From positions 1-64,000 of the IMG/VR virus record IMGVR_UViG_2599185230_000001: a stretch of DNA of 64,000 nt; one strand, given 5' to 3'. This document shows positions 1-9,004 of the stretch, in pieces. A program made the translations under genes and the position numbers. Source of the stretch: a virus. Lineage: Duplodnaviria > Caudoviricetes. The notes under the pieces are model-generated. The model made no database searches. It was given only the letters and a program-made list of their open reading frames with translations, and was not told the DNA's origin. Every line of letters starts with the position of its first letter. Positions within the stretch are counted from its first letter, which is position 1.

Positions 1-63
1 TTGCTATGTTTTTTCTCTACCAAAAAACAACATAGCAAAGCTGGCTTCTGCCGAAGCCTTTTT

Positions 64-88
64 AAAAACCCTGCTTTCGCAGGTTTTT
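64..88. terminator. Intrinsic terminator, possibly bidirectional
   Basis: AAAAAC-CCTGC-TTTC-GCAGG-TTTTT. Confidence 0.65.
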
Positions 89-396
89 ATTCGGGTGATC
101 TCCGACACCCGGGACCGGCGGGCGGCGAATAGTGAGACCCCATCTTAAACCGTGTCCCTTTAAACGACCTCCATCACTACCGTGATGGCGCGTATATGGC
201 GCGGGACCCTATGACGCCGTTGGTCCGGATGGCTTATGCCATCCCCGGATTATTAGCAGTTACCACTGCCACGGGTTCTAACGAACCCTCCGACTAACCT
301 GGTATCTACCAAGTGAAAATTAAACGGCAACTTCGTTGCCCATTGATCACTATGATCACTTTCCCCTTTCGGAGTGGCCCGGCTTACGCCAGGCCA
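64..396 (-). ncRNA. Candidate large structured ncRNA (or ssDNA structure), family unknown
   Basis: No ORF. About 11 consecutive short hairpins; minus-strand loops include GUAA, GAAA, GUUA, GGUA. Four G-U wobbles work only on the minus strand. Ends in a GAAA hairpin plus U tract. Confidence 0.55.
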
Positions 397-468
397 GTTA
401 ACTTACAATTAATATTTCTACCTCACCAGTAATCGTGGTCGTTTTCTTGGATATCTAGGATTTTTAGG

Positions 469-858
469 TTAGGCAGATTGAGAATGTTCATTGGATATCA
501 CATTAAATAATCTTTCAGTTTCTCTTTTATGCCATCTACCATGTCTTAAATATTTCATGTGAGCTATTTCGTGGCATATAAGTCCTTCTAATGATTCAGG
601 TTCTAGTTTAGGCCATGAATTTGCGCCTCTTATTCCCTGGCTCCAGCGATGATCACAATAACATTCATGGATGAAAAATTCATCTACAGTTATTTGATAT
701 ACTTTTTTATTTTCATCGGCATATGCAATACCTAAAGCATTTTCATATCCTTCAACCTTTCCGTGGTCATAAGCAAGAATAGGAATGATTATGTTAAATT
801 TCAACTTAATATTGGTAACTATATCGTCAAAATACTGTTGTTCCTGTTCTGTTAGCAT
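469..858 (-). CDS. HEXXH zinc metalloprotease-like protein (SprT/YgjP-like)
   Basis: ICHEIAH...HG..H motif; GGGAG SD. Confidence 0.6.
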   Translation of the reverse strand: MLTEQEQQYFDDIVTNIKLKFNIIIPILAYDHGKVEGYENALGIAYADENKKVYQITVDEFFIHECYCDHRWSQGIRGANSWPKLEPESLEGLICHEIAHMKYLRHGRWHKRETERLFNVISNEHSQSA

Positions 859-955
859 TTAAAACTCCCTCATTACTAAAGATTTATCTGATCAACACTG
901 TAATCCTGAAAGCCGGTTTTTAGTTAATACCACTAGGTGCTCATTCATCATCTTT

Positions 956-1013
956 ATACCGGCCTACTAGCCGGTATTCCCTCCCTTCGAATTGGATTTA
1001 CCGGCCTTCCGGC
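956..1013 (-). promoter_or_regulatory. RBS-switch repeat, variant copy (CCGGC stems)
   Basis: Minus strand: GCC-GGAA-GGCCGGUA...GGGAGGG A AUACCGGC-UAGUAG-GCCGGUAU AAAG AUG; followed only by a 19-codon ORF. Confidence 0.55.
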
Positions 1014-1025
1014 TTGGTTATTAGA

Positions 1026-1430
1026 TCATTTTTTTAGCCTTTCGGCAAAATACATATAACCATTATCGCCGCAACATTCTTTACAAGCTACGCTTCCATT
1101 ATTTGCACATGTTGGACAGGGATTAAGCGGATCTGTTTTCATGCTATTATCATGTTTCTGAACCCAACCAAGTGCATCTTCGCCGGTATAGGCATAGCCG
1201 TCAGCAACACTATCAATACCACCAACGTCCTTGCGGTCCTTATGGTAGATCTCAATGATACCTGCATTTAAATCCATCCAATAATAGCTATTTGAGTGAA
1301 AGTAGAAACCGATTCCGCCGGCCTCATACCAGCCGGCTGCTTTAATAGTTTCTTCCGCCGCTTTCATCCGTAGGGATTCCTGTTCTGATGTCTCACGCAT
1401 CAGGTCTTCATGAGTCAGCTTCTTAACCAT
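1026..1430 (-). CDS. Hypothetical protein with C-terminal Cys cluster
   Basis: Start moved to ATG 1430 after AAGGAGG; CPTC...CKECC. Confidence 0.6.
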   Translation of the reverse strand: MVKKLTHEDLMRETSEQESLRMKAAEETIKAAGWYEAGGIGFYFHSNSYYWMDLNAGIIEIYHKDRKDVGGIDSVADGYAYTGEDALGWVQKHDNSMKTDPLNPCPTCANNGSVACKECCGDNGYMYFAERLKK

Positions 1431-1443
1431 AAGCCCAACCTCC

Positions 1444-1830
1444 TTACTTTTGAATGAATTCAGAAATATGCGGTACCTTAACTTTTTCAAGCTTGCTCTC
1501 GCAAAGAGGGCATTTATTATTACTTTCATCCAAGCTGAAAACTTCACCGCAGCTTGTACACTTATATTCGGACACCTGCTTTACACTGGTTTTTATGGCA
1601 TTCCAGCACTCTAATAGCGGGCCGGCTACGTGCAAGATTTCATTTTCGATAAGTTGCTGGTTTCCGCTGCGCAACGCGCCAAGGAGATGCCCCATATGTT
1701 CCCCGGCAATCACTCCCCATTCTATAGGCTTGCGCTCGTCATCCTCTTTATTACTGCCGTGCACTTCGCGGTTGATTTCTTGCTGTGCTAAAACGGCTTT
1801 TATAAAGCTTTGGGCTTCTTGTAACGTCAT
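1444..1830 (-). CDS. MazG-like helical protein fused to a zinc ribbon
   Basis: W..IAGEHMGH...ENEILHVA resembles MazG-like W..IL.EEVGE...EL.QVA; CxxC...CPLC tail. Confidence 0.45.
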   Translation of the reverse strand: MTLQEAQSFIKAVLAQQEINREVHGSNKEDDERKPIEWGVIAGEHMGHLLGALRSGNQQLIENEILHVAGPLLECWNAIKTSVKQVSEYKCTSCGEVFSLDESNNKCPLCESKLEKVKVPHISEFIQK

Positions 1831-1913
1831 TTAATATACCTCCTATTCTCTACCCCTTAAAGGGGTGGTCCAGCATTCATATAATTATCCTCTCCACCAT
1901 GTTCTTTTAAATA

Positions 1914-2231
1914 TTAAGCACCAAGGTGCTTTGCACATGCTAACGCAGCTTTCGCAGCAAACTCAAAACCTTGATAAGTCACCCCAAATAAGGCTACTTT
2001 CCTAATTTCATCAACATTTGCAACTTCAATTAATATATAATGCCCCTCATATCCAGTTGACGGGTAACATACAAGCCAGCTATATTCCGGGAATTTCTGT
2101 TCCGGATCTACAGAAGGTAGAGTATCAAAATATTCTTCCGGATAACAATCTTCACTTTTAAGACGTTTTTCAAGCTCCTTTAAGACTTCACCGATAGTTT
2201 TATTTTCAATTTCAATTGGCTTTACTTTCAT
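1914..2231 (-). CDS. Hypothetical protein
   Basis: 105-aa ORF with AGGAGG SD, co-oriented with neighbours. Confidence 0.6.
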   Translation of the reverse strand: MKVKPIEIENKTIGEVLKELEKRLKSEDCYPEEYFDTLPSVDPEQKFPEYSWLVCYPSTGYEGHYILIEVANVDEIRKVALFGVTYQGFEFAAKAALACAKHLGA

Positions 2232-2382
2232 TAATGGTTTGTCCCTCCTGTATTCTGCGCCCAGTGGGCGCAGTTTTTATTTGCACCCACCGGGGGAATA
2301 CTGACAATAGAGCTTGTTAGTAGCTTGTTATCATAGTTAAGCTAAAGCTGGCTACAAAATCTGCCAATTGCTTACAGGTCTT

Positions 2383-2775
2383 TTATGCCCATTCAGCTCT
2401 TTTGTAGGCAGGTAGTTCTCCTACAATTTCACCGGCAAGATCATTTGCCAGTCTATCCATGTCTTTAAACAGCTGCGATTTTGGCACATCGCCTTCCATG
2501 CATTGGTACAAAAATCCTCTCAGGGACTTATATACCTGCACTTTACTTTCTGGCTGACATTTGTATTTATACAAGTTTAATGGATTGTTTTCTCCGTAGC
2601 GTTGATCTATTGCTCTGACGTTCATGGCCCAAAGGTTTTGCCCGAGCTTATTCGGTTCTCCTTTGTAAGCGTCCGAAATTGCCGGATAGTAATGATAGAT
2701 AGTGTCTATAAGCTTGCCATGGATAAATGTTACAATCCGGTCGATTGTTTCCTTCCCGACGATATATGCGCTCAT
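2383..2775 (-). CDS. Hypothetical protein
   Basis: Start moved to MSAYIV (2775) after GGAGG. Confidence 0.6.
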   Translation of the reverse strand: MSAYIVGKETIDRIVTFIHGKLIDTIYHYYPAISDAYKGEPNKLGQNLWAMNVRAIDQRYGENNPLNLYKYKCQPESKVQVYKSLRGFLYQCMEGDVPKSQLFKDMDRLANDLAGEIVGELPAYKRAEWA

Positions 2776-2864
2776 ATTCCCTCCACCTACTGCGAGCCGG
2801 ATGGCCCAAATGCAGTAGGCCACCCGTTTTTATTGCTCCGGTGGTGGGCATATTTTATTAACCG

Positions 2865-3605
2865 TTAAATATATCCTTTAGCTTTAAAACTCACAAACTT
2901 GCTATCTCCGATCACCAGGTGATCTAATACATTGATACCAATAATATTACCTGCCTCAATTAGGCGTTTGGTAACCTCTATATCTTGCTGGCTGGGTGTT
3001 GGATCACCGCTGGGATGGTTGTGGACCAATACTAATCCCGCCGCGCTACGCCTTACGGCATTTTTATAAAGCTCTCTGGGGTGAATCGGTGAAGAATTCA
3101 ACGTGCCGATAGAAATTGTTTCCCGGGCTATTACTTGGTTTTTTGTGTTTAGCAACAGAGCCCAAAAGTGCTCCCGGTCCAGGTAACGCATTTCTTCCAT
3201 CACCAGGGCTGCAGCGTCTTCCGGAGATTTTATAAATGGTAAATCCTCCGGCATGAGCTTGGTCATGCGTCGGGCAAGCTCAAAGGCAGCTGCAAGGCGT
3301 ATCGATTTCTCTATACCTATACCAGGCAAATTCAATAATTCTTCAGATGACATCTGGGCAAGTGCCCGAAGTCCCTGTTTCATCAAAAATTCCATTGTTT
3401 CATCGGGTATAGGTCCAAGAATGCAACCTAGTACGCCAAACAGTTCACTCGACTCAACACCATACCGAATAGCTTCTTCCCTGACTTGTAAGGACAGTGT
3501 TCTATGAACGCTTCCTACCGGTCGTTTCACTTTCAAATCCCGTGAGCTTGGCACTTCTTTGGTATATTGTTTTAACTCCTCTTCACTCCACAGCATATTT
3601 TGCAT
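2865..3605 (-). CDS. radC: RadC family JAB-domain protein
   Basis: HhH GIG motif; EHF..LLLN.KN; HPRE; HNHPSGDPTPS..D; LDHLVIG. Confidence 0.95.
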   Translation of the reverse strand: MQNMLWSEEELKQYTKEVPSSRDLKVKRPVGSVHRTLSLQVREEAIRYGVESSELFGVLGCILGPIPDETMEFLMKQGLRALAQMSSEELLNLPGIGIEKSIRLAAAFELARRMTKLMPEDLPFIKSPEDAAALVMEEMRYLDREHFWALLLNTKNQVIARETISIGTLNSSPIHPRELYKNAVRRSAAGLVLVHNHPSGDPTPSQQDIEVTKRLIEAGNIIGINVLDHLVIGDSKFVSFKAKGYI

Positions 3606-3611
3606 GATTAC

Positions 3612-3676
3612 GGATACGGGCTGCTGCCCGTATCCAATCCCTCCTTTCGGATGATTGGTCTACGGGCGCACGCCCG
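3612..3676 (-). promoter_or_regulatory. RBS-switch repeat upstream of radC
   Basis: AAAGGAGG-GAUU-[GGAUACGGGC AGCA GCCCGUAUCC]-GUAAUC-AUG, with upstream complementary arm. Confidence 0.7.
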
Positions 3677-3710
3677 GTTATCACTGATACAAATTAATCA
3701 TTTATAATGA

Positions 3711-4055
3711 TTAATCAAACTTCAAAAATTGCTCTACCATTTCTAAATCTTCTTCTCTCTTTTTCCTAAAATACTCATCTTCATCATACTTAAAGTATAT
3801 TAAGGTAAAAAATCTTACATTTTCTAAACACACAAACAACTGACAACTTTTATCACTATACACTTCACTATCAAAATCCAAATCATACTTTTTAACATAT
3901 TCAACAAAATTTTTTGGACTTAAGGCAAAACTTATTCTAATTCTGTCATTACGTTCTATATTAACATTGCAACTATATGACTCAACCTCTTTTAAAATTT
4001 TATTTAAATTTGCAGCACATTTATTGGAAATATTAAGAATCTCATTCAGATTCAT
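3711..4055 (-). CDS. Hypothetical AT-rich protein
   Basis: ORF with AAAGGTGG SD before ATG 4055. Confidence 0.55.
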   Translation of the reverse strand: MNLNEILNISNKCAANLNKILKEVESYSCNVNIERNDRIRISFALSPKNFVEYVKKYDLDFDSEVYSDKSCQLFVCLENVRFFTLIYFKYDEDEYFRKKREEDLEMVEQFLKFD

Positions 4056-4069
4056 TTTTAAACCACCTT

Positions 4070-4654
4070 TCAAAACTCTCTATTGAAGCTATTTAAAGCC
4101 ATCATCTGAATTTCAGCGTTGCTGCTTAATAAACACTCAACCAAGTACTCATAATAGTCAACTTTGTGCAGCAGCCCTGCTAAATCGCAGTGTGCTTGAT
4201 AACCGCCGGCTGCAAGTGAGTAATTAATTGTCCGCACAAGCAGCGACAGTGTTTCGTAAGCTTTATCCAACCTCTCGCATAATATCCGTTCCTTTTCCCG
4301 TTTCTTGGCTTGCTGCATTATCTTTCGGCGGGATGCCGATGATAGCGGCTTATTTACTTCAATACCAAAATCCCGGGCAATCATTCGTGCAGCCTCAATT
4401 AGTTCTAAATTGAATATTTTGGCTACTAAATCGACCCCATCGCCATGCTCACCACAGCCGAAGCATTTCCATGTTCCGTTTGGGAAAACAACGAAAGACG
4501 GTGAGTGATCATCATGAATCGGGCACCGAGCCGCCCAACGCCTACCGCGCTTCTTTAGCTCGACAATGTTATAGCGATTAATAATCTCCACAATATTTAT
4601 CTGTTTAACAAGTTGAAATATATTAATTCGCTGTGTTTCATTTGCAGCGCGCAT
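4070..4654 (-). CDS. CHC2 zinc-finger protein (DnaG N-terminal domain, no TOPRIM)
   Basis: CPIHDDHSPSF...WKCFGCGEHGD. Confidence 0.85.
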   Translation of the reverse strand: MRAANETQRINIFQLVKQINIVEIINRYNIVELKKRGRRWAARCPIHDDHSPSFVVFPNGTWKCFGCGEHGDGVDLVAKIFNLELIEAARMIARDFGIEVNKPLSSASRRKIMQQAKKREKERILCERLDKAYETLSLLVRTINYSLAAGGYQAHCDLAGLLHKVDYYEYLVECLLSSNAEIQMMALNSFNREF

Positions 4655-4721
4655 ATTATCACCTCACCGTATTTCTCTCCTTGTTTTTGTAATTTCGCTT
4701 TATTTTGTAATTAATTTGAAT

Positions 4722-4860
4722 TATAATTATGGGTAAGTGGGGGAGGGCTAGCTCCCCCAACAAGAGGTGTTCTATTTGGAATGGCGATTGGGAGATTTCC
4801 CTTTCGCTTTTCTCTTTTTCATTACGGTAGCTATTGCAGCCAAAGCCGTAATGATTTGAG
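4722..4860 (+). ncRNA. Putative antisense antitoxin RNA (3' end uncertain)
   Basis: TATAAT at 4722-4727, then a TGGGGGAG/CTCCCCCA hairpin, convergent with the toxin 3' end. Confidence 0.35.
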
Positions 4861-4906
4861 AAATCAGCTTAAGGTAGTCCGCCACTATGATCAGCCAATC
4901 CCGCAT
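4772..4906 (-). CDS. Candidate type I toxin (44-aa hydrophobic peptide, basic tail)
   Basis: MRDWLIIVADYLKLISQIITALAAIATVMKKRKAKGK...; SD lies inside a CCUCCUUCC/GGAAAGGGGG hairpin. Confidence 0.55.
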   Translation of the reverse strand: MRDWLIIVADYLKLISQIITALAAIATVMKKRKAKGKSPNRHSK

Positions 4907-5051
4907 AGGTATCACCCCCTTTCCTCGGAAGGAGGCCCCACTTACCCAAAAGTTACGTCTTAACACAAAAGGAGAACGCACGGGGTAATTCCCCGAAATT
5001 CGTTCTCCTTAACTCATGGCCGTTCGGCCTATCTTTCTTTTTACCCTGCAA

Positions 5052-5486
5052 TTAAAGCTCTTTTACTTTAATTGCGAACCACGCAATGCCATCCTTCATA
5101 ACATTATAACTGATCTCAAACCTCTTATTTTTACCGTCTTGTAATGCCTTACCAACACCATTTTTAGCAATAACAACCTGTTTTTCGCAACCGTTTTCAA
5201 CCTGGCAAGTAGCCCTGGTATTACCGTTTTTGGTTGTTTCTATTTCAGTAACAGTGACCCGGGCTACCAGGTTTTCCTTTTCTTTCTTCTCTCCACCTTC
5301 ATTTTTTGGAACCGGATCATTCTTAATCTCGGTATCCGCTGCCGGTTGTGACACAGGTACTTGGACACCAGCCAAGTTTGTAAACACACCAGACACCGCA
5401 AACATGCGGCAATCACTACCGTTCCAAGCCATACACGCATCTTGCAAACATTCGGTAAACCCTTTAAAAGGACACATTTTTTTCAT
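5052..5486 (-). CDS. Hypothetical protein (N-terminal Cys motif, possible OB-like C-terminus)
   Basis: CPF..FTEC..DACMAW...C motif. Confidence 0.6.
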   Translation of the reverse strand: MKKMCPFKGFTECLQDACMAWNGSDCRMFAVSGVFTNLAGVQVPVSQPAADTEIKNDPVPKNEGGEKKEKENLVARVTVTEIETTKNGNTRATCQVENGCEKQVVIAKNGVGKALQDGKNKRFEISYNVMKDGIAWFAIKVKEL

Positions 5487-5492
5487 TCTTTC

Positions 5493-5557
5493 AGATACGG
5501 GCCGTGCCCGTATCCATTCACCTCCATTAAAAGATGGTTGGATTCGGGCAATTGCCC
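5493..5557 (-). promoter_or_regulatory. RBS-switch repeat
   Basis: GGAGGUG-AAU-[GGAUACGGGC ACG GCCCGUAUCU]-GAAAGA-AUG. Confidence 0.7.
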
Positions 5558-5586
5558 CAAATATCTAAAAATACACCAGTTTTCTT

Positions 5587-5967
5587 TTAATACATCAACT
5601 CTGTTAACTCTTCGTCAGTTGCTTTTATACACCTATTGTAAAAATTTGAAAACTCATCAGGTTTAAAACGCCTCACTGTGATACTTTCAAACGGTAATGC
5701 ACCGCGAATAACCAGCCATTCATCACCGCCATCAACCTGGTTGATGAAAGCTATATTCCCAAGGTAAAATGCTTGCGCTAAACACCAATTTCCCTTACTA
5801 ATTTCAAAATATAGCTCTTCTAAAGTATCGCAACGGTAAAAGGATTCTTTTGTAAATGGTGGATCATAAGAATCCCTAATCCAAGGATTATTGTTACCTA
5901 TTTCCAACCATTTTTGAATTAATTCCTGATAGTCACTTTCTTTTGACTCTATCCGCAATTCTTCCAT
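5587..5967 (-). CDS. Hypothetical protein
   Basis: Likely start ATG 5967 just downstream of the switch hairpin. Confidence 0.6.
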   Translation of the reverse strand: MEELRIESKESDYQELIQKWLEIGNNNPWIRDSYDPPFTKESFYRCDTLEELYFEISKGNWCLAQAFYLGNIAFINQVDGGDEWLVIRGALPFESITVRRFKPDEFSNFYNRCIKATDEELTELMY

Positions 5968-5976
5968 GATAATGCC

Positions 5977-6044
5977 GGATACGGGCCACGCCCGTATCCA
6001 ATTCACCTCCCTAAAAAGATGTTTGGATTCGGGCTTCACGGCCC
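5977..6044 (-). promoter_or_regulatory. RBS-switch repeat
   Basis: GCCCGAAUCCAA-A-CAUCUUU-UUAG-GGAGGUG-AA-UUGGAUACGGGC-GUG-GCCCGUAUCC. Confidence 0.7.
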
Positions 6045-6209
6045 TTTTCCCATTTTTTTTACCAGGACAATCCTAAGCTATTATGAACCGCCTTTCCCTC
6101 CATTTTTTCTTTATACAGACACTTGGTCTGTTAGGTCCGGGTGGCCCCAATTGCAAACCACCTGCTTTTTCTTGCCCAGTGATAGATTTATAATAAATTA
6201 ATTTTCGCC

Positions 6210-6586
6210 TTAGTTCTTTAAAGCACCCATTTGATTCGCCAGGACCCAAAGGGCTTTATTAAGCTTTATATTGTTATCAATTGACTTTACCGGTCTCGTC
6301 GATACCCTTCTTCCGGAAACGGATCTGCCGCGCTGGCCGCCCTTGATTACGTTTTCCTGTACCCGGTTAAAGGTGCTCCAAAGGTCTTCCCTTTCGTCAA
6401 CCCGACGGCGAGACGATAGTGCTTGAGCAGAAGAAATTGGAGCCTTCTCTATATCGTCGTACTTTAGAGTTAAGGCTGCCGCAGCAAAAGCTTTAGCTTC
6501 CGGAAGAGTCAATTGCGTTGACTTCATCGTTTCCACTGACTCTTGGGCTGTATCAAAATCATCGACAATACTATAAGCGGCATCTA
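6210..6586 (-). pseudogene. DUF932/DUF945 (YafZ-like) protein, C-terminal half only, cut by the prophage end
   Basis: RR.D...DLWSTFNRVQEN.IKGG..G....GRR..TR.V.SID..IKLN.ALW; similarity stops at the phage end. Confidence 0.85.
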
Positions 6587-6633
6587 TGTAGCCGCGCAGA
6601 ATTTTTGGCAAACATTCTCAAAATTTTTGGCAA
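6587..6633 (+). repeat. Prophage end (methylase side) with two transposase-binding repeats
   Basis: TGTAG at 6587; CAGAATTTTTGGCAA 6597-6611 and CAAAATTTTTGGCAA 6619-6633. Confidence 0.8.
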
Positions 6634-6756
6634 AAATAAGAACTGATTCTTAAAAGATGCAAAATCAAGGACCACCTATCTTAATCCTCGTAGCAGGGTT
6701 AATTGTTATTAATAAATCTATCTAAGATTAAAATGCCCGTTAATATAAACAGGCAC

Positions 6757-7020
6757 TTAATATAATTTTCGATTTTGTTTTATGGATCTATTACCACTTG
6801 TTAATCTTTTCCTTTTGGGGATATATTCTAAGATGTCTGACACTTCACATTCTAAGACTTCACATATCTTATCAAGATGATTAAGATTTATTCTTTCTAC
6901 TAACTCGTGATAATAATCCCCTATTGTGCTCGGTCGGATTCCTGTTCTCCGGGCCAGTTCTGCCTGAGTCCACTTACGCTCTCCAAGGAGTCTCGATAAA
7001 TGTATTTTAATCACGTACAA
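6757..7020 (-). CDS. XRE/Cro-C1 HTH regulator (YozG-like)
   Basis: L..LL.ERKWTQAELARRTGIRPSTI...I.L..LDKICEVLECEVSDIL. Confidence 0.85.
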   Translation of the reverse strand: MYVIKIHLSRLLGERKWTQAELARRTGIRPSTIGDYYHELVERINLNHLDKICEVLECEVSDILEYIPKRKRLTSGNRSIKQNRKLY

Positions 7021-7121
7021 TCACCCCATTTCGGGGAAATTGTATCACCGTGAGTTATTGTCTAAGTTAATATGTTATAAAATCACGAAATACGTTATTT
7101 AAACTTTAAAAAAAATTAAAT

Positions 7122-7877
7122 TTAATAGTTTCTAATTATTAACTCTTTATATTGATGATCTGCATAGTTATATCTAATATTTAGATTATTACTCCGGCTT
7201 ACAGCTACAATATTAAAATTTTTATATAGCTCCCGAACTTGAGTGCAATCGTTATATGTCAAAATAAACTTACCTTTGATATTAAGCAGTATCTCCCTGA
7301 GCTTTGCATGTTCTTCATGTTGAAATACGGCTGAGTAATATTTTTCGGTACCATAATAAGGTGGATCTAAATAAAATAGAGCTGCAGGTCTGTCGTAGAC
7401 ATCTAATAAGCTATCGTATGGTTTGTTCTCCACCACTACACGGGAAAGCCGCTGTTGGACTTGATTTAAATAGTTGGTCATACCCATAATATCTTTTGGT
7501 CTACAACCGTAATTACGGCAGTTGCTACCGTAACTGTTTTTAATGATCATGAAGAACCTCGCTGCCCGTTGGATATCCGTAAGACCTCTGACTGTATTTT
7601 GGGCTAGATAATCTTCAAATAATTCACGGCAGTTTAGAATATAGCTTAGTTCCTTTTGAACCTCCGAACAATGGTTTTTTACGCATCTAAATAAGTTTAC
7701 CAGGTCCGAATTGAGGTCGTTATAAACTTCAAATTCTGCGTGTTTGTCCCGGTAAAACAGCACCCAGCCAGCACCACCAAATACTTCGATATACCTACCA
7801 AAGTTAGGTGGAAACCTCTTTACGATTTCTGCCCGGAGGAGCCTTTTACCGCCAATCCAGCTAAGAAAACTGTTCAA
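7122..7877 (-). CDS. D12-class N6-adenine DNA methyltransferase (Dam family)
   Basis: W.GGK; Y.EVFGGAG; ND.N; YLDPPY; TTG start after AAAGGAG. Confidence 0.93.
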   Translation of the reverse strand: MNSFLSWIGGKRLLRAEIVKRFPPNFGRYIEVFGGAGWVLFYRDKHAEFEVYNDLNSDLVNLFRCVKNHCSEVQKELSYILNCRELFEDYLAQNTVRGLTDIQRAARFFMIIKNSYGSNCRNYGCRPKDIMGMTNYLNQVQQRLSRVVVENKPYDSLLDVYDRPAALFYLDPPYYGTEKYYSAVFQHEEHAKLREILLNIKGKFILTYNDCTQVRELYKNFNIVAVSRSNNLNIRYNYADHQYKELIIRNY

Positions 7878-7989
7878 GATGTCACTCCTTTGCATATATT
7901 AAGTTCTTTATGTTGACCCCGTCTAACTAGGGTCCGCTTGGACTCTTCGAATTGGCACCTCCATTATTAATAATTAATTAAAGTTGGTA

Positions 7990-8025
7990 ATAATCCAGGC
8001 CGCAAGGTGGCGCGACCTGGATTAT
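7990..8025 (-). promoter_or_regulatory. 14-bp stem-loop upstream of the methylase
   Basis: AUAAUCCAGGUCGC-loop-GCGGCCUGGAUUAU; U-G pair valid on the minus strand only. Confidence 0.5.
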
Positions 8026-8031
8026 ACATAC

Positions 8032-8298
8032 TTAAATACCTACCTGTGCCAAAACTGCTTGCACCATAGCAGCAGTAGCTTTATCAAGTTCAGCCAGGGG
8101 AATACCGTCGTTTCGGTTGCCACCGAAATAAACTTCGCGGTTGCCATAGTCAAACACAGTCTCGCCGCCCACTACAGGGTATCCAAACTCGTGTTCACCA
8201 GTGTAATCCACTATCTCGCTGTGTGCAAACCGCTGAGCCATCTCCAAACTGTTAACTACATGCAGAACCCCATACTTGTCACGATATGCTTTAGCCAT
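8032..8298 (-). CDS. Hypothetical phage protein
   Basis: 88 aa, AAGGAGG SD. Confidence 0.7.
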   Translation of the reverse strand: MAKAYRDKYGVLHVVNSLEMAQRFAHSEIVDYTGEHEFGYPVVGGETVFDYGNREVYFGGNRNDGIPLAELDKATAAMVQAVLAQVGI

Positions 8299-8377
8299 TT
8301 TTTATCCTCCTTGTTTTTATTTTAGATAGTTAAGTGACGACCACCAGTTTGTGCCGATAACCACCTCCTTCAGAGTA

Positions 8378-8402
8378 ATAAAAATAACGCCTTTCGGCGT
8401 TA
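8378..8402 (-). terminator. Intrinsic terminator after the tail-fibre module
   Basis: UAACGCC-GAAA-GGCGUUA-UUUUU. Confidence 0.75.
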
Positions 8403-8434
8403 CTGCTTATGTCGTCTTTTAATCCTACTGCGCA

Positions 8435-8605
8435 TTACTTCCCGAACTTCGTTTTCTTCTGCTTCCATTCATCCTGTAGCCTGGCAACCTCGTCCGTTTC
8501 GCCCAGGTCCTGAGCTTCACGGATTTTTTGCAGGTACTTTTCCCGCTCTTCTTCATAAGTTAGCTCAACCGTAAACTTATTACCTTCTTGTTTTACTTGC
8601 GGCAT
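8435..8605 (-). CDS. Small phage protein (56 aa, not in ORF track)
   Basis: MPQVKQEGNKFTVELTYEEEREKYLQK...; TAATG coupling to the upstream gene. Confidence 0.65.
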   Translation of the reverse strand: MPQVKQEGNKFTVELTYEEEREKYLQKIREAQDLGETDEVARLQDEWKQKKTKFGK

Positions 8606-8991
8606 TAGCTAACCACCACCTTGATACTAACATTATCGACACTAGAATTCGTTGTTCTAATTTCGAACTCACCAGGTGTCGTGCTTGAAAACTGGATTGT
8701 TGCTACCCCATCTACAGGGGCTATTTCAGCTACTTCACCAGCTACGCTCACCTTAAACGGTACGATGTTCGCCGGGTCATTAAAATGCCGCCCCTGCTGC
8801 AAATCAAACAATTGCCATTGTAAGACAACGTTAACCGTTTCGCCCAGGGTGGCGGTCGTTTTATCGGGTGTAAGCGCTATTTTTTCAGACGTTGTATAGG
8901 GTTCCTGAATGATTGCCTTACCGCCTGGTTGGTTGTCTGATATGATTTCTATAGTTTTTAACACTTGCCCATTAGCTAACACTTCAAACAT
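8605..8991 (-). CDS. Tail-associated beta-rich (Ig-like) protein
   Basis: Follows tail fibre; DGVATIQFSSTTPGEFEI pattern. Confidence 0.6.
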   Translation of the reverse strand: MFEVLANGQVLKTIEIISDNQPGGKAIIQEPYTTSEKIALTPDKTTATLGETVNVVLQWQLFDLQQGRHFNDPANIVPFKVSVAGEVAEIAPVDGVATIQFSSTTPGEFEIRTTNSSVDNVSIKVVVS

Positions 8992-9004
8992 AAATACCAC
9001 CCCT

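Follow-up and report, generated by a model that had tools for sequence, protein, structure and literature searches.

A lineage-restricted mRNA leader with a split ribosome-binding site and two selected folds before genes of conjugative elements

How does a ribosome find the start codon of a gene whose Shine-Dalgarno (SD) sequence lies far upstream, with a stable hairpin standing in between? This question is raised by positions 946 to 6046 of IMG/VR virus record IMGVR_UViG_2599185230_000001, in which an mRNA leader of about 75 bases opens each of four genes, radC included. The analysis covers a stretch of 64,000 nucleotides (nt), positions 1 to 64,000 of that record (hereafter the window), and the four genes belong to a conjugative mobile element. 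The leader is a real, uncatalogued and lineage-restricted cis-regulatory family with a split ribosome-binding site (RBS) and two selected folds. An earlier note, made from the window's letters without database searches, had described a four-copy module at this locus and read it as a translational switch. All four copies are present where it placed them, but the genome holds seven in total, the further three being located on contig C38.

Leader copies were located by covariance model, and their structures were predicted by folding. The covariance model R1 was built from six copies, and R2 is a second model. The genome-wide search returns 10 model matches, consisting of the seven sense copies and three short antisense hairpin matches at the same sites, and the copies in the window have E-values from 5e-10 to 8e-19. 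All energies given here are nearest-neighbour estimates at 37 C. The minimum free energy (MFE) structures of the window copies have z-scores of -3.2 to -6.1 relative to dinucleotide shuffles. The four copies and their parts are as follows, with outer boundaries taken from the covariance model.

946 to 1017, minus strand: leader copy A, the CCGGC variant (R1 50.5 bits, R2 46.1 bits)
1009 to 1013, 999 to 1005, 969 to 978 and 956 to 964, minus strand: arm1, arm2, arm3 and arm4 of copy A
979 to 985, minus strand: SD of copy A, GGGAGGG; its first AUG is at 949 to 951
3603 to 3678, minus strand: leader copy B, 5' of radC (R1 81.5 bits; MFE -41.4 kcal/mol, z -6.1)
3672 to 3676, 3661 to 3667, 3626 to 3635 and 3612 to 3621, minus strand: arm1, arm2, arm3 and arm4 of copy B
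3649 to 3658 and 3634 to 3639, minus strand: hairpin X of copy B, the 5' half including the anti-SD (GAAA loop) and the 3' half
3640 to 3644, minus strand: SD of copy B; its AUG is at 3603 to 3605
5484 to 5561, minus strand: leader copy C (R1 74.6 bits; z -6.0)
5554 to 5557, 5539 to 5549, 5506 to 5516 and 5494 to 5502, minus strand: arm1, arm2, arm3 and arm4 of copy C
5530 to 5536 and 5519 to 5525, minus strand: anti-SD CAUCUUU and SD GGAGGUG of copy C; its AUG is at 5484 to 5486
5968 to 6046, minus strand: leader copy D (R1 69.3 bits; z -3.9)
6041 to 6044, 6023 to 6034, 5990 to 6001 and 5977 to 5986, minus strand: arm1, arm2, arm3 and arm4 of copy D
6015 to 6021 and 6004 to 6011, minus strand: anti-SD and SD of copy D; its AUG, at 5965 to 5967, lies immediately beyond the model match

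Reading from 5' to 3', the leader begins with a GC mini-hairpin of 4-5 base pairs (bp) formed by arm1 and arm2 (GGGC/GCCC type), which is followed by a linker, a hairpin designated X, the arm3:arm4 hairpin, 4-7 unpaired nt and the AUG. The 3' half of X is a strong SD, and the 5' half closes it. This closure pairs CAUCUUU with GGAGGUG in copies C and D, and it consists of UCC-GAAA-GGA plus CCAAUC:GAUUGG in copy B, which agrees with the earlier description of a different inner stem and a GAAA loop before radC. A GC-rich arm3:arm4 hairpin of 8-12 bp parts the SD from the AUG in all four window copies, as had been proposed, and a search of these copies for a second strong SD close to the AUG found none. 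The unpaired SD-to-AUG remainder on the two sides of this hairpin is 2+4 nt in copy A, 4+6 in B, 5+6 in C and 4+7 in D. Arm2 is complementary to arm3 in each window copy. The concerted change from CGGGC to CCGGC that had been noticed in the copy at 956 extends through all four arms of copy A and of its C38 paralogue as CCGGC/GCCGG; the other copies carry CGGGC/GCCCG.

The family extends well past this genome. At E<=0.1, R1 finds the leader in 34 of 101 related genomes, where a few kb of one strand typically hold several matches. Searching 240 kb of related clusters with the same model yields 108 matches, of which 88 are full-length and in the sense orientation, while the other 20 are short, antisense and confined to the palindromic hairpin. 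The 20 antisense matches were left out, as were three weak full-length ones picked out by eye (L042:1501-1572, with no AUG; L045:1501-1561, with no arm3:arm4; and L056:1663-1730, with no arm1/arm2), and 85 copies were analysed. An open reading frame (ORF) of at least 30 codons begins between -9 and +3 nt from the match end in 80 of these 85 copies, and in 64 the ORF start is exactly the model's terminal AUG. The proposed location at RBSs, here those of conjugative-element genes, is supported.

A covariance-model search of class genomes, which the earlier note had suggested, matches 46 of 151 sampled genomes of the host's class with R2; the matches form same-strand clusters, and all belong to the same order or closer. 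Outside that order, 2 of 147 sampled genomes of the phylum are matched, both from one family. In addition, a scan of genome contigs with a degenerate pattern produced at least 120 stretches, from which 80 loci (L081-L160) were taken. Two of these are true members, from Desulfoscipio geothermicus DSM 3669 and Peptococcaceae bacterium BRH_c8a, and R2 has 0 matches in the 78 unrelated pattern-derived loci. Leader types go along with orthologous genes. In a plasmid collection, no match was obtained for window positions 1-6600 by megablast or for copy B by blastn, and viral contigs gave 0 exact matches to a pattern that covered the C-type SD/arm3 junction only. The view that the RNA is undescribed is borne out by Rfam 15, which has no match at the copies at the gathering score (window) or at E<=10 (positions 1-9000). 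No published description of the leader was found in the literature searched, which did not include supplementary motif lists.

The split of the RBS can be quantified in the 80 copies with an adjoining ORF. The SD is very strong, often AAGGAGGUGA, and the linear distance from its core to the start codon has a median of 34 nt (range 27-43). Between the two stands an arm3:arm4 hairpin with a median of 10 bp (6-14) and a median energy of -19.3 kcal/mol. When this hairpin is discounted, the unpaired remainder has a median of 4+6 = 10 nt (interquartile range 9-11), despite the varying size of the hairpin. In the R1-fitted alignment, whose columns follow this structure and which counts the 20 antisense hairpin matches among its rows, 99.4% of arm3:arm4 cells are paired and both partners have changed in 9 of 10 pairs, in agreement with the claim that the SD-AUG hairpin covaries. 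Arm1:arm2 is 89.4% paired in the same alignment. Shuffles reach the observed pairing in 0 of 500 trials, and slid controls are 27-62% paired.

The structure belongs to the mRNA-sense strand, because G-U pairs are common (10-11% of pairs, with non-pairs rare) and both folding and model scores are better in the sense orientation. The sense strand folds better than the antisense strand in 76 of 85 copies, by a mean of 4.8 kcal/mol, and R2 assigns 32-81 bits to the sense strand versus 20-32 bits to the antisense strand at the same sites.

The closest precedent is found in phage T4. According to the portion of a review that treats split initiation regions (PMC3014915, drawing on Nivinskas et al., 1999, and Malys and Nivinskas, 2009), an SD-AUG hairpin shortens the spacing from 22 to 5 nt in gene 38 and from 27 to 11 nt in gene 25, and disruption of the hairpin lowers translation. 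The leader resembles these regions in having an SD that is too distant and a hairpin that restores the distance, here from a median of 34 to 10 nt. The T4 cases, however, are single genes without competitor arms, whereas the leader possesses arm2 and arm1, which enable a long hairpin. It also differs in carrying the SD inside a hairpin of its own and in forming a family of well over 100 copies on conjugative elements of anaerobic Firmicutes.

That long hairpin is the MFE structure of each window copy. Arm2:arm3 is stacked on X and closed by arm1:arm4, which gives about 20-25 bp with small internal loops. Across the family it is the MFE in 79 of 85 copies and lies a mean of 5.2 kcal/mol below the best three-hairpin state, so the two states are not near-isoenergetic as the earlier note had expected. 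Its long stem made by the upstream arm is recovered, with arm1:arm4 as an additional pairing, but the hiding of the SD is not specific to this fold.

Several comparisons indicate that the match between arm2 and arm3 is maintained. Arm2 contains the exact complement of its own loop-proximal arm3 5-mer in 62 of 85 copies, compared with a mean of 0-19% of cases, depending on class, for the complements of other classes. This tracking spans seven classes (CGGGC, GGGCC, CCGGC, CGGCC, GCGGC, AGGCC and GACGG). Matched arm2:arm3 duplexes have a mean of -17.4 kcal/mol versus -13.0 kcal/mol when permuted (z -13, 0/2000), and the corresponding values for arm3:arm4 are -19.3 and -12.9 kcal/mol. The match of arm2 to arm3 continues past its arm1-pairing part, usually interrupted by a single conserved mismatch or bulge, so that arm2:arm3 never quite equals arm3:arm4 in strength. 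On a structure-blind MAFFT alignment, arm2:arm3 is 74% paired versus 35-47% when slid, its double-change cells number 50 versus 28.4 +/- 4.4 in shuffles, and all six pairs of X covary. Pairing of the 5' flank with the region of distal arm4, spacer and AUG is marginal (-3.07 versus -2.58 kcal/mol, z -2.8).

These patterns provide good evidence for selection on X and on one or both of the cross-pairings arm2:arm3 and arm1:arm4, and the covariation of arm2:arm3 alongside arm3:arm4 accords with the suggestion that both folds look selected. The three-hairpin fold must be used, because the distal arm3:arm4 pairs have no partner in the long hairpin yet covary. The long hairpin must be used too, because a concerted change in all four arms is useless in the three-hairpin fold.

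Other results weigh against the conservation of the cross-pairing. Arm2:arm3 is 63% paired on the R1-fitted alignment (A3), hardly above shuffles, a weak column result that is likely explained by register shifts between arm classes. Column support is also modest on the R2-fitted alignment (A5, antisense rows included), in which 76% of cells are paired, and RNAalifold predicts 0 pairs on the MAFFT sub-alignment from arm2 to arm3. Part of the arm2:arm3 match could follow from look-alike hairpins, with arm1 resembling arm3 and arm2 resembling arm4, that are kept for another reason. Finally, the sequences are related, and the permutation statistics thus overstate significance.

It is moderately probable that the copies govern translation initiation in cis, each as an mRNA leader whose split RBS has two mutually exclusive folds, the long hairpin being the default. 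Fold A would comprise three hairpins, namely arm1:arm2, X around the SD, and arm3:arm4. In this arrangement arm3:arm4 would loop out about 24 nt and leave 4+6 unpaired nt between SD and AUG, the sole geometry that would let an SD-bound 30S subunit reach the AUG, so that fold A would presumably be the ON state. Fold B would stack arm2:arm3 and arm1:arm4 on X as one long hairpin with the SD at its apex, the AUG at its foot and some 34 nt of largely double-stranded RNA between them, and would presumably be OFF. During transcription, arm3 is predicted to displace arm1:arm2, after which arm4 would meet a free arm1. Because fold B is the predicted product both of co-transcriptional folding and of equilibrium, the default would be a translational lock (probably OFF). 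Candidate triggers for release are a 30S subunit capturing the apical SD, a ribosome that ends the upstream cistron and covers arm1 (feasible in about one quarter of copies), or a factor from the element or host. The analysis establishes the family, its start-codon position, the conservation of both pairings, the constant effective spacing and the strand specificity; ON/OFF switching, the identity of the ON fold and the trigger are inferred.

The predicted folding path rests on two sets of calculations. With transcripts truncated directly behind arm3, the MFE structure contains arm2:arm3 in 69 of 85 copies; this nascent pairing has an advantage of 5.3 kcal/mol over arm1:arm2 plus X, and the barrier to it is about 3.5 kcal/mol. 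The mini-hairpin that had been proposed to mask the upstream arm is thereby predicted to be displaced by arm3. For full-length leaders, the direct-path barrier from the three-hairpin fold to the long hairpin has a median of 16.4 kcal/mol, and that of the reverse path is 21.9 kcal/mol. These values come from findpath, which follows heuristic direct paths, and the real barriers may be lower.

The same energetics contain the main difficulties for a switch. With the long hairpin forming first and a barrier of about 22 kcal/mol on the way back, the three-hairpin fold might be rare unaided. Three or more of the five SD bases take part in pairs in 66 of 85 three-hairpin states and 61 of 85 MFE structures, which contradicts the proposal that the SD is masked in one fold only. 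Since the SD is partly paired in both states, the main differences between them are the SD-AUG geometry and the tightness with which X is held closed. X, whose own median energy is -6.9 kcal/mol, still has to open in the three-hairpin (presumed ON) fold. In-silico removal of arm1 leaves the two folds close to balance, with arm3:arm4 in 33 of 85 copies and arm2:arm3 in the other 52, so that no simple trigger emerges from the energetics. Only 21 of 82 copies have the upstream stop codon at a distance of 12 nt or less, and a terminating upstream ribosome was accordingly rejected as a general trigger. An RNA thermometer was also rejected, as the calculated state difference is -4.7, -4.5, -4.4 and -3.9 kcal/mol at 25, 37, 55 and 65 C.

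Among the alternatives, the one that survives best, although it seems unlikely, is a constitutive structured RBS or a form of mRNA punctuation, in which the leader sets a fixed low rate, acts as a stabilising hairpin or provides an RNase III-type processing site that parts the cistrons of an early operon, without any switching. RNase III sites of this kind occur between T7 early genes, and the leaders are likewise intercistronic and repeated on one strand. The predominance of the long hairpin at equilibrium and as the predicted co-transcriptional product would suit a static element, as would the lack of a conserved loop or junction hinting at a ligand pocket. A static long hairpin does not account for the distal arm3:arm4 pairs, which are unpaired in it yet covary strongly, or for the unpaired SD-AUG remainder being kept at about 10 nt, and these two features together indicate a second, hairpin-bridged fold. 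Processing faces the further objection that cutting the long hairpin on its 3' side would sever the SD from the ORF.

An intrinsic terminator or attenuator was considered and rejected, as no minus-strand terminator-like site is present at the copies and arm4 is followed by a purine-rich segment (GUAAUC, GAAAGA) and the AUG. No promoter of its own was found before each copy.

Control by a trans regulator, such as an RNA-binding protein of the element, a small RNA or a small ligand, for which arm1:arm2 and arm3:arm4 would be twin binding sites, is judged improbable. The many copies per element would permit coordinate control, and a GC core is common to arm1:arm2 and arm3:arm4 in most members. 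Yet loops and stems vary within one element, copy A being unlike B-D and several classes occurring per cluster. A sequence-specific binder should freeze the sequence, and a binder that recognizes only shape needs no matching hairpins; arm2, moreover, matches arm3 outside its arm1-pairing part, and a conserved core of the riboswitch kind is not seen. A riboswitch or other ligand-binding leader was rejected on similar grounds, as loops L12 and L34 and the linkers vary and the conserved unpaired letters are essentially those of the SD and the GAAA tetraloop.

A role of the element as single-stranded DNA (ssDNA) in conjugative transfer, for instance as a priming site or an ssDNA promoter, has very little probability. 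It would draw on the conjugative nature of the host elements, on the ability of one-strand hairpins to form in transferred ssDNA and on the hairpin-dense non-coding stretch that follows the cluster on the same strand. It leaves unexplained that every copy has a consensus SD, ends 5-7 nt 5' of a start codon and keeps a constant unpaired spacing, and it would not call for frequent G-U pairs; promoter-like hexamers are absent at the copies, and several copies per few kb are unexpected for an origin.

Least credible of all is a selfish dispersed repeat, like the repetitive extragenic palindromes (REP) or miniature inverted-repeat transposable elements (MITE), or a leader-peptide attenuator that is translated as an upstream ORF (uORF) from a UUG or AUG after the SD: the element is indeed repeated, but all seven genome copies are confined to two gene clusters, where they stand on the coding strand at start codons, with the same arrangement in relatives and with leader types accompanying orthologous genes, and while a start-like codon occurs within 10 nt after the SD in 60 of 84 copies, it stands just 1-4 nt past GGAGG in 58 of the 60 and is missing from the other 24, the resulting uORFs range from 4 to 288 codons with 19 of 60 in frame with the gene, and the region evolves by base-pair compensation and not by codon conservation. 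Both possibilities had been named in the earlier note as ways in which its reading might fail. REP/MITE-like homologues away from RBSs were not seen, with sense copies confined to two coding-strand clusters and 80 of 85 copies abutting an ORF start, and no conserved uORF was found among the 84 copies examined.

The preferred reading, a two-fold leader with a split RBS, can be compared with several known RNA systems. The radC RNA motif (RF01754) is a 5' untranslated region motif of radC, integrase, methyltransferase and anti-restriction genes. It shares with the leader a place upstream of radC and of genes for anti-restriction or DNA modification on mobile elements. It is listed for Proteobacteria (Weinberg et al., 2010; PMC2864571), whereas the leader is found in the host's own class, for example in Desulfoscipio geothermicus and a Peptococcaceae bacterium. 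The two are assumed to differ in architecture and are set apart by taxonomic range and by model search, as the RF01754 model has no match at E<=10 in positions 1-9000 or at E<=1 in 59 kb of related loci that contain many leader copies. STAXI (RF01728) and traJ-II (RF01760) are structured elements beside ssb, topoisomerase, anti-restriction or transfer genes of mobile DNA, and their Rfam models are likewise unmatched at the leader copies.

In mechanism, the leader shares a four-arm logic with the ermC and cat leaders, in which the choice between 1:2/3:4 and 2:3 pairing decides RBS use. Those systems require both a leader peptide and ribosome stalling, and it is their 3:4 hairpin that buries the SD. 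The present leader has no conserved uORF and carries its SD between arms 2 and 3, and its 3:4 hairpin would be activating, whereas that of ermC and cat is masking. In hok mRNA and the MS2 maturation gene, translation is set by which of two folds is present, without a ligand. Unlike these, the co-transcriptional product predicted for the leader is already the stable closed fold, and a simple timer that is open while the RNA is nascent is therefore unsupported by the calculation.

The genes behind the four window copies, and the gene fragment next to copy D, are the following, with lengths in codons or amino acids (aa).

892 to 951, minus strand: 19-codon ORF behind copy A
2865 to 3605, minus strand: radC, 246 aa, behind copy B (Pfam RadC PF04002, E 1.3e-48)
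5052 to 5486, minus strand: 144-aa Cys-rich gene (MKKMCPF...) behind copy C, without a Pfam family
5587 to 5967, minus strand: 126-aa gene (MEELRIES...) behind copy D, without a Pfam family
6246 to 6584, minus strand: C-terminal half of a DUF932 gene (PF06067, positions 117-227 of 227 only, E 2.5e-13)

Orthologues of the 144-aa Cys-rich gene stand behind the same leader in many relatives. Copy A does precede an AUG, as had been stated, but this opens only the 19-codon ORF. The start of that ORF resembles that of 81-aa proteins which follow this leader type in loci L053 and L051, and the ORF is probably a remnant of a decayed 81-aa gene. The DUF932 fragment sits directly upstream of copy D and is truncated on its 5' side; no second DUF932 match was found within the genome, and the truncation is consistent with a cut by insertion of the neighbouring Mu-like prophage.

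Pfam was used to scan 46 proteins, consisting of 45 of the 80 downstream ORFs, hand-picked against duplicates, and the ORF at window positions 469-858. The matches are to ArdC-N (ArdcN, 8 proteins), RadC (7), DUF6573 (3), DUF3854 (2), DUF6782 (2) and C5 DNA methylase (1), and the remainder have no family. A VirD4/TraG-type coupling-protein gene is located 3-10 kb away on the same strand in the seven clusters checked (G000:C38, G065, G073, G045, G292 and two of G072). The carriers are conjugative elements, as both this gene and the Pfam content indicate, and the genes served are, to judge by their protein families, of the anti-restriction or establishment kind.

Because the leader precedes such genes, its likely purpose would be to keep them silent in a resident element and to allow coordinated expression when needed. 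A more specific version of the two-fold reading, offered only tentatively, is that the leader is a ligand-free, self-contained two-state RBS that locks during transcription and becomes translatable only once it has refolded to the split RBS, with refolding driven by a ribosome on the apical SD or by a cue that arises only once the element is inside a new cell. If true, the leader would act as a translation-level 'arrival gate' for the anti-restriction and establishment genes of conjugative elements, and horizontal gene transfer would gain a control layer of a new kind, with a dedicated RNA device before each gene. Such a device would bear on the timing of ArdC, RadC, methylase and DUF932-neighbour genes in conjugative elements that Gram-positive anaerobes carry. 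Taken with the radC and STAXI motifs, the leader suggests that establishment genes of conjugative elements may as a general rule be gated at the RBS. Hitherto a peculiarity of two genes in T4, the split RBS would become a family of well over 100 natural variants, whose diversity is a ready-made mutational series. A four-arm design with both folds selected and no ligand pocket would also offer a small, testable model of ligand-free RNA switching and possibly a modular part for synthetic translation control.

Further features were recorded in and around the cluster. A strong terminator-like hairpin with a U run is present at 4971-5010 (minus strand), after the gene at 5052-5486, and the cluster therefore probably comprises more than one transcription unit. 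Following this hairpin, a small ORF at 4772-4906 encodes a hydrophobic peptide with a basic tail. The cluster genes at 2383-2775 and 1914-2231 have other leaders (2776-2860 and 2232-2300, minus strand), in which a GC-rich hairpin lies directly 5' of a normally spaced SD and which are unmatched by models R1 and R2. Right after the last cluster gene, a hairpin-dense non-coding stretch occupies 64-396 (minus strand), with terminator-like hairpins at its end. Folded as positions 1-470, it has an MFE of -184.7 kcal/mol (z -6.5); Rfam has no match in 64-396, and the stretch could be a single-strand origin or a structured non-coding RNA of the element. The paralogous cluster on contig C38 (locus L065) contains a group II intron at 3118-5749 (minus strand; Rfam Intron_gpII, 56.2 bits, and group-II-D1D4-5, 47.6 bits). 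In the window, the sole Rfam match above the gathering score is a tRNA gene at 60033-60104 (minus strand, 69.7 bits).

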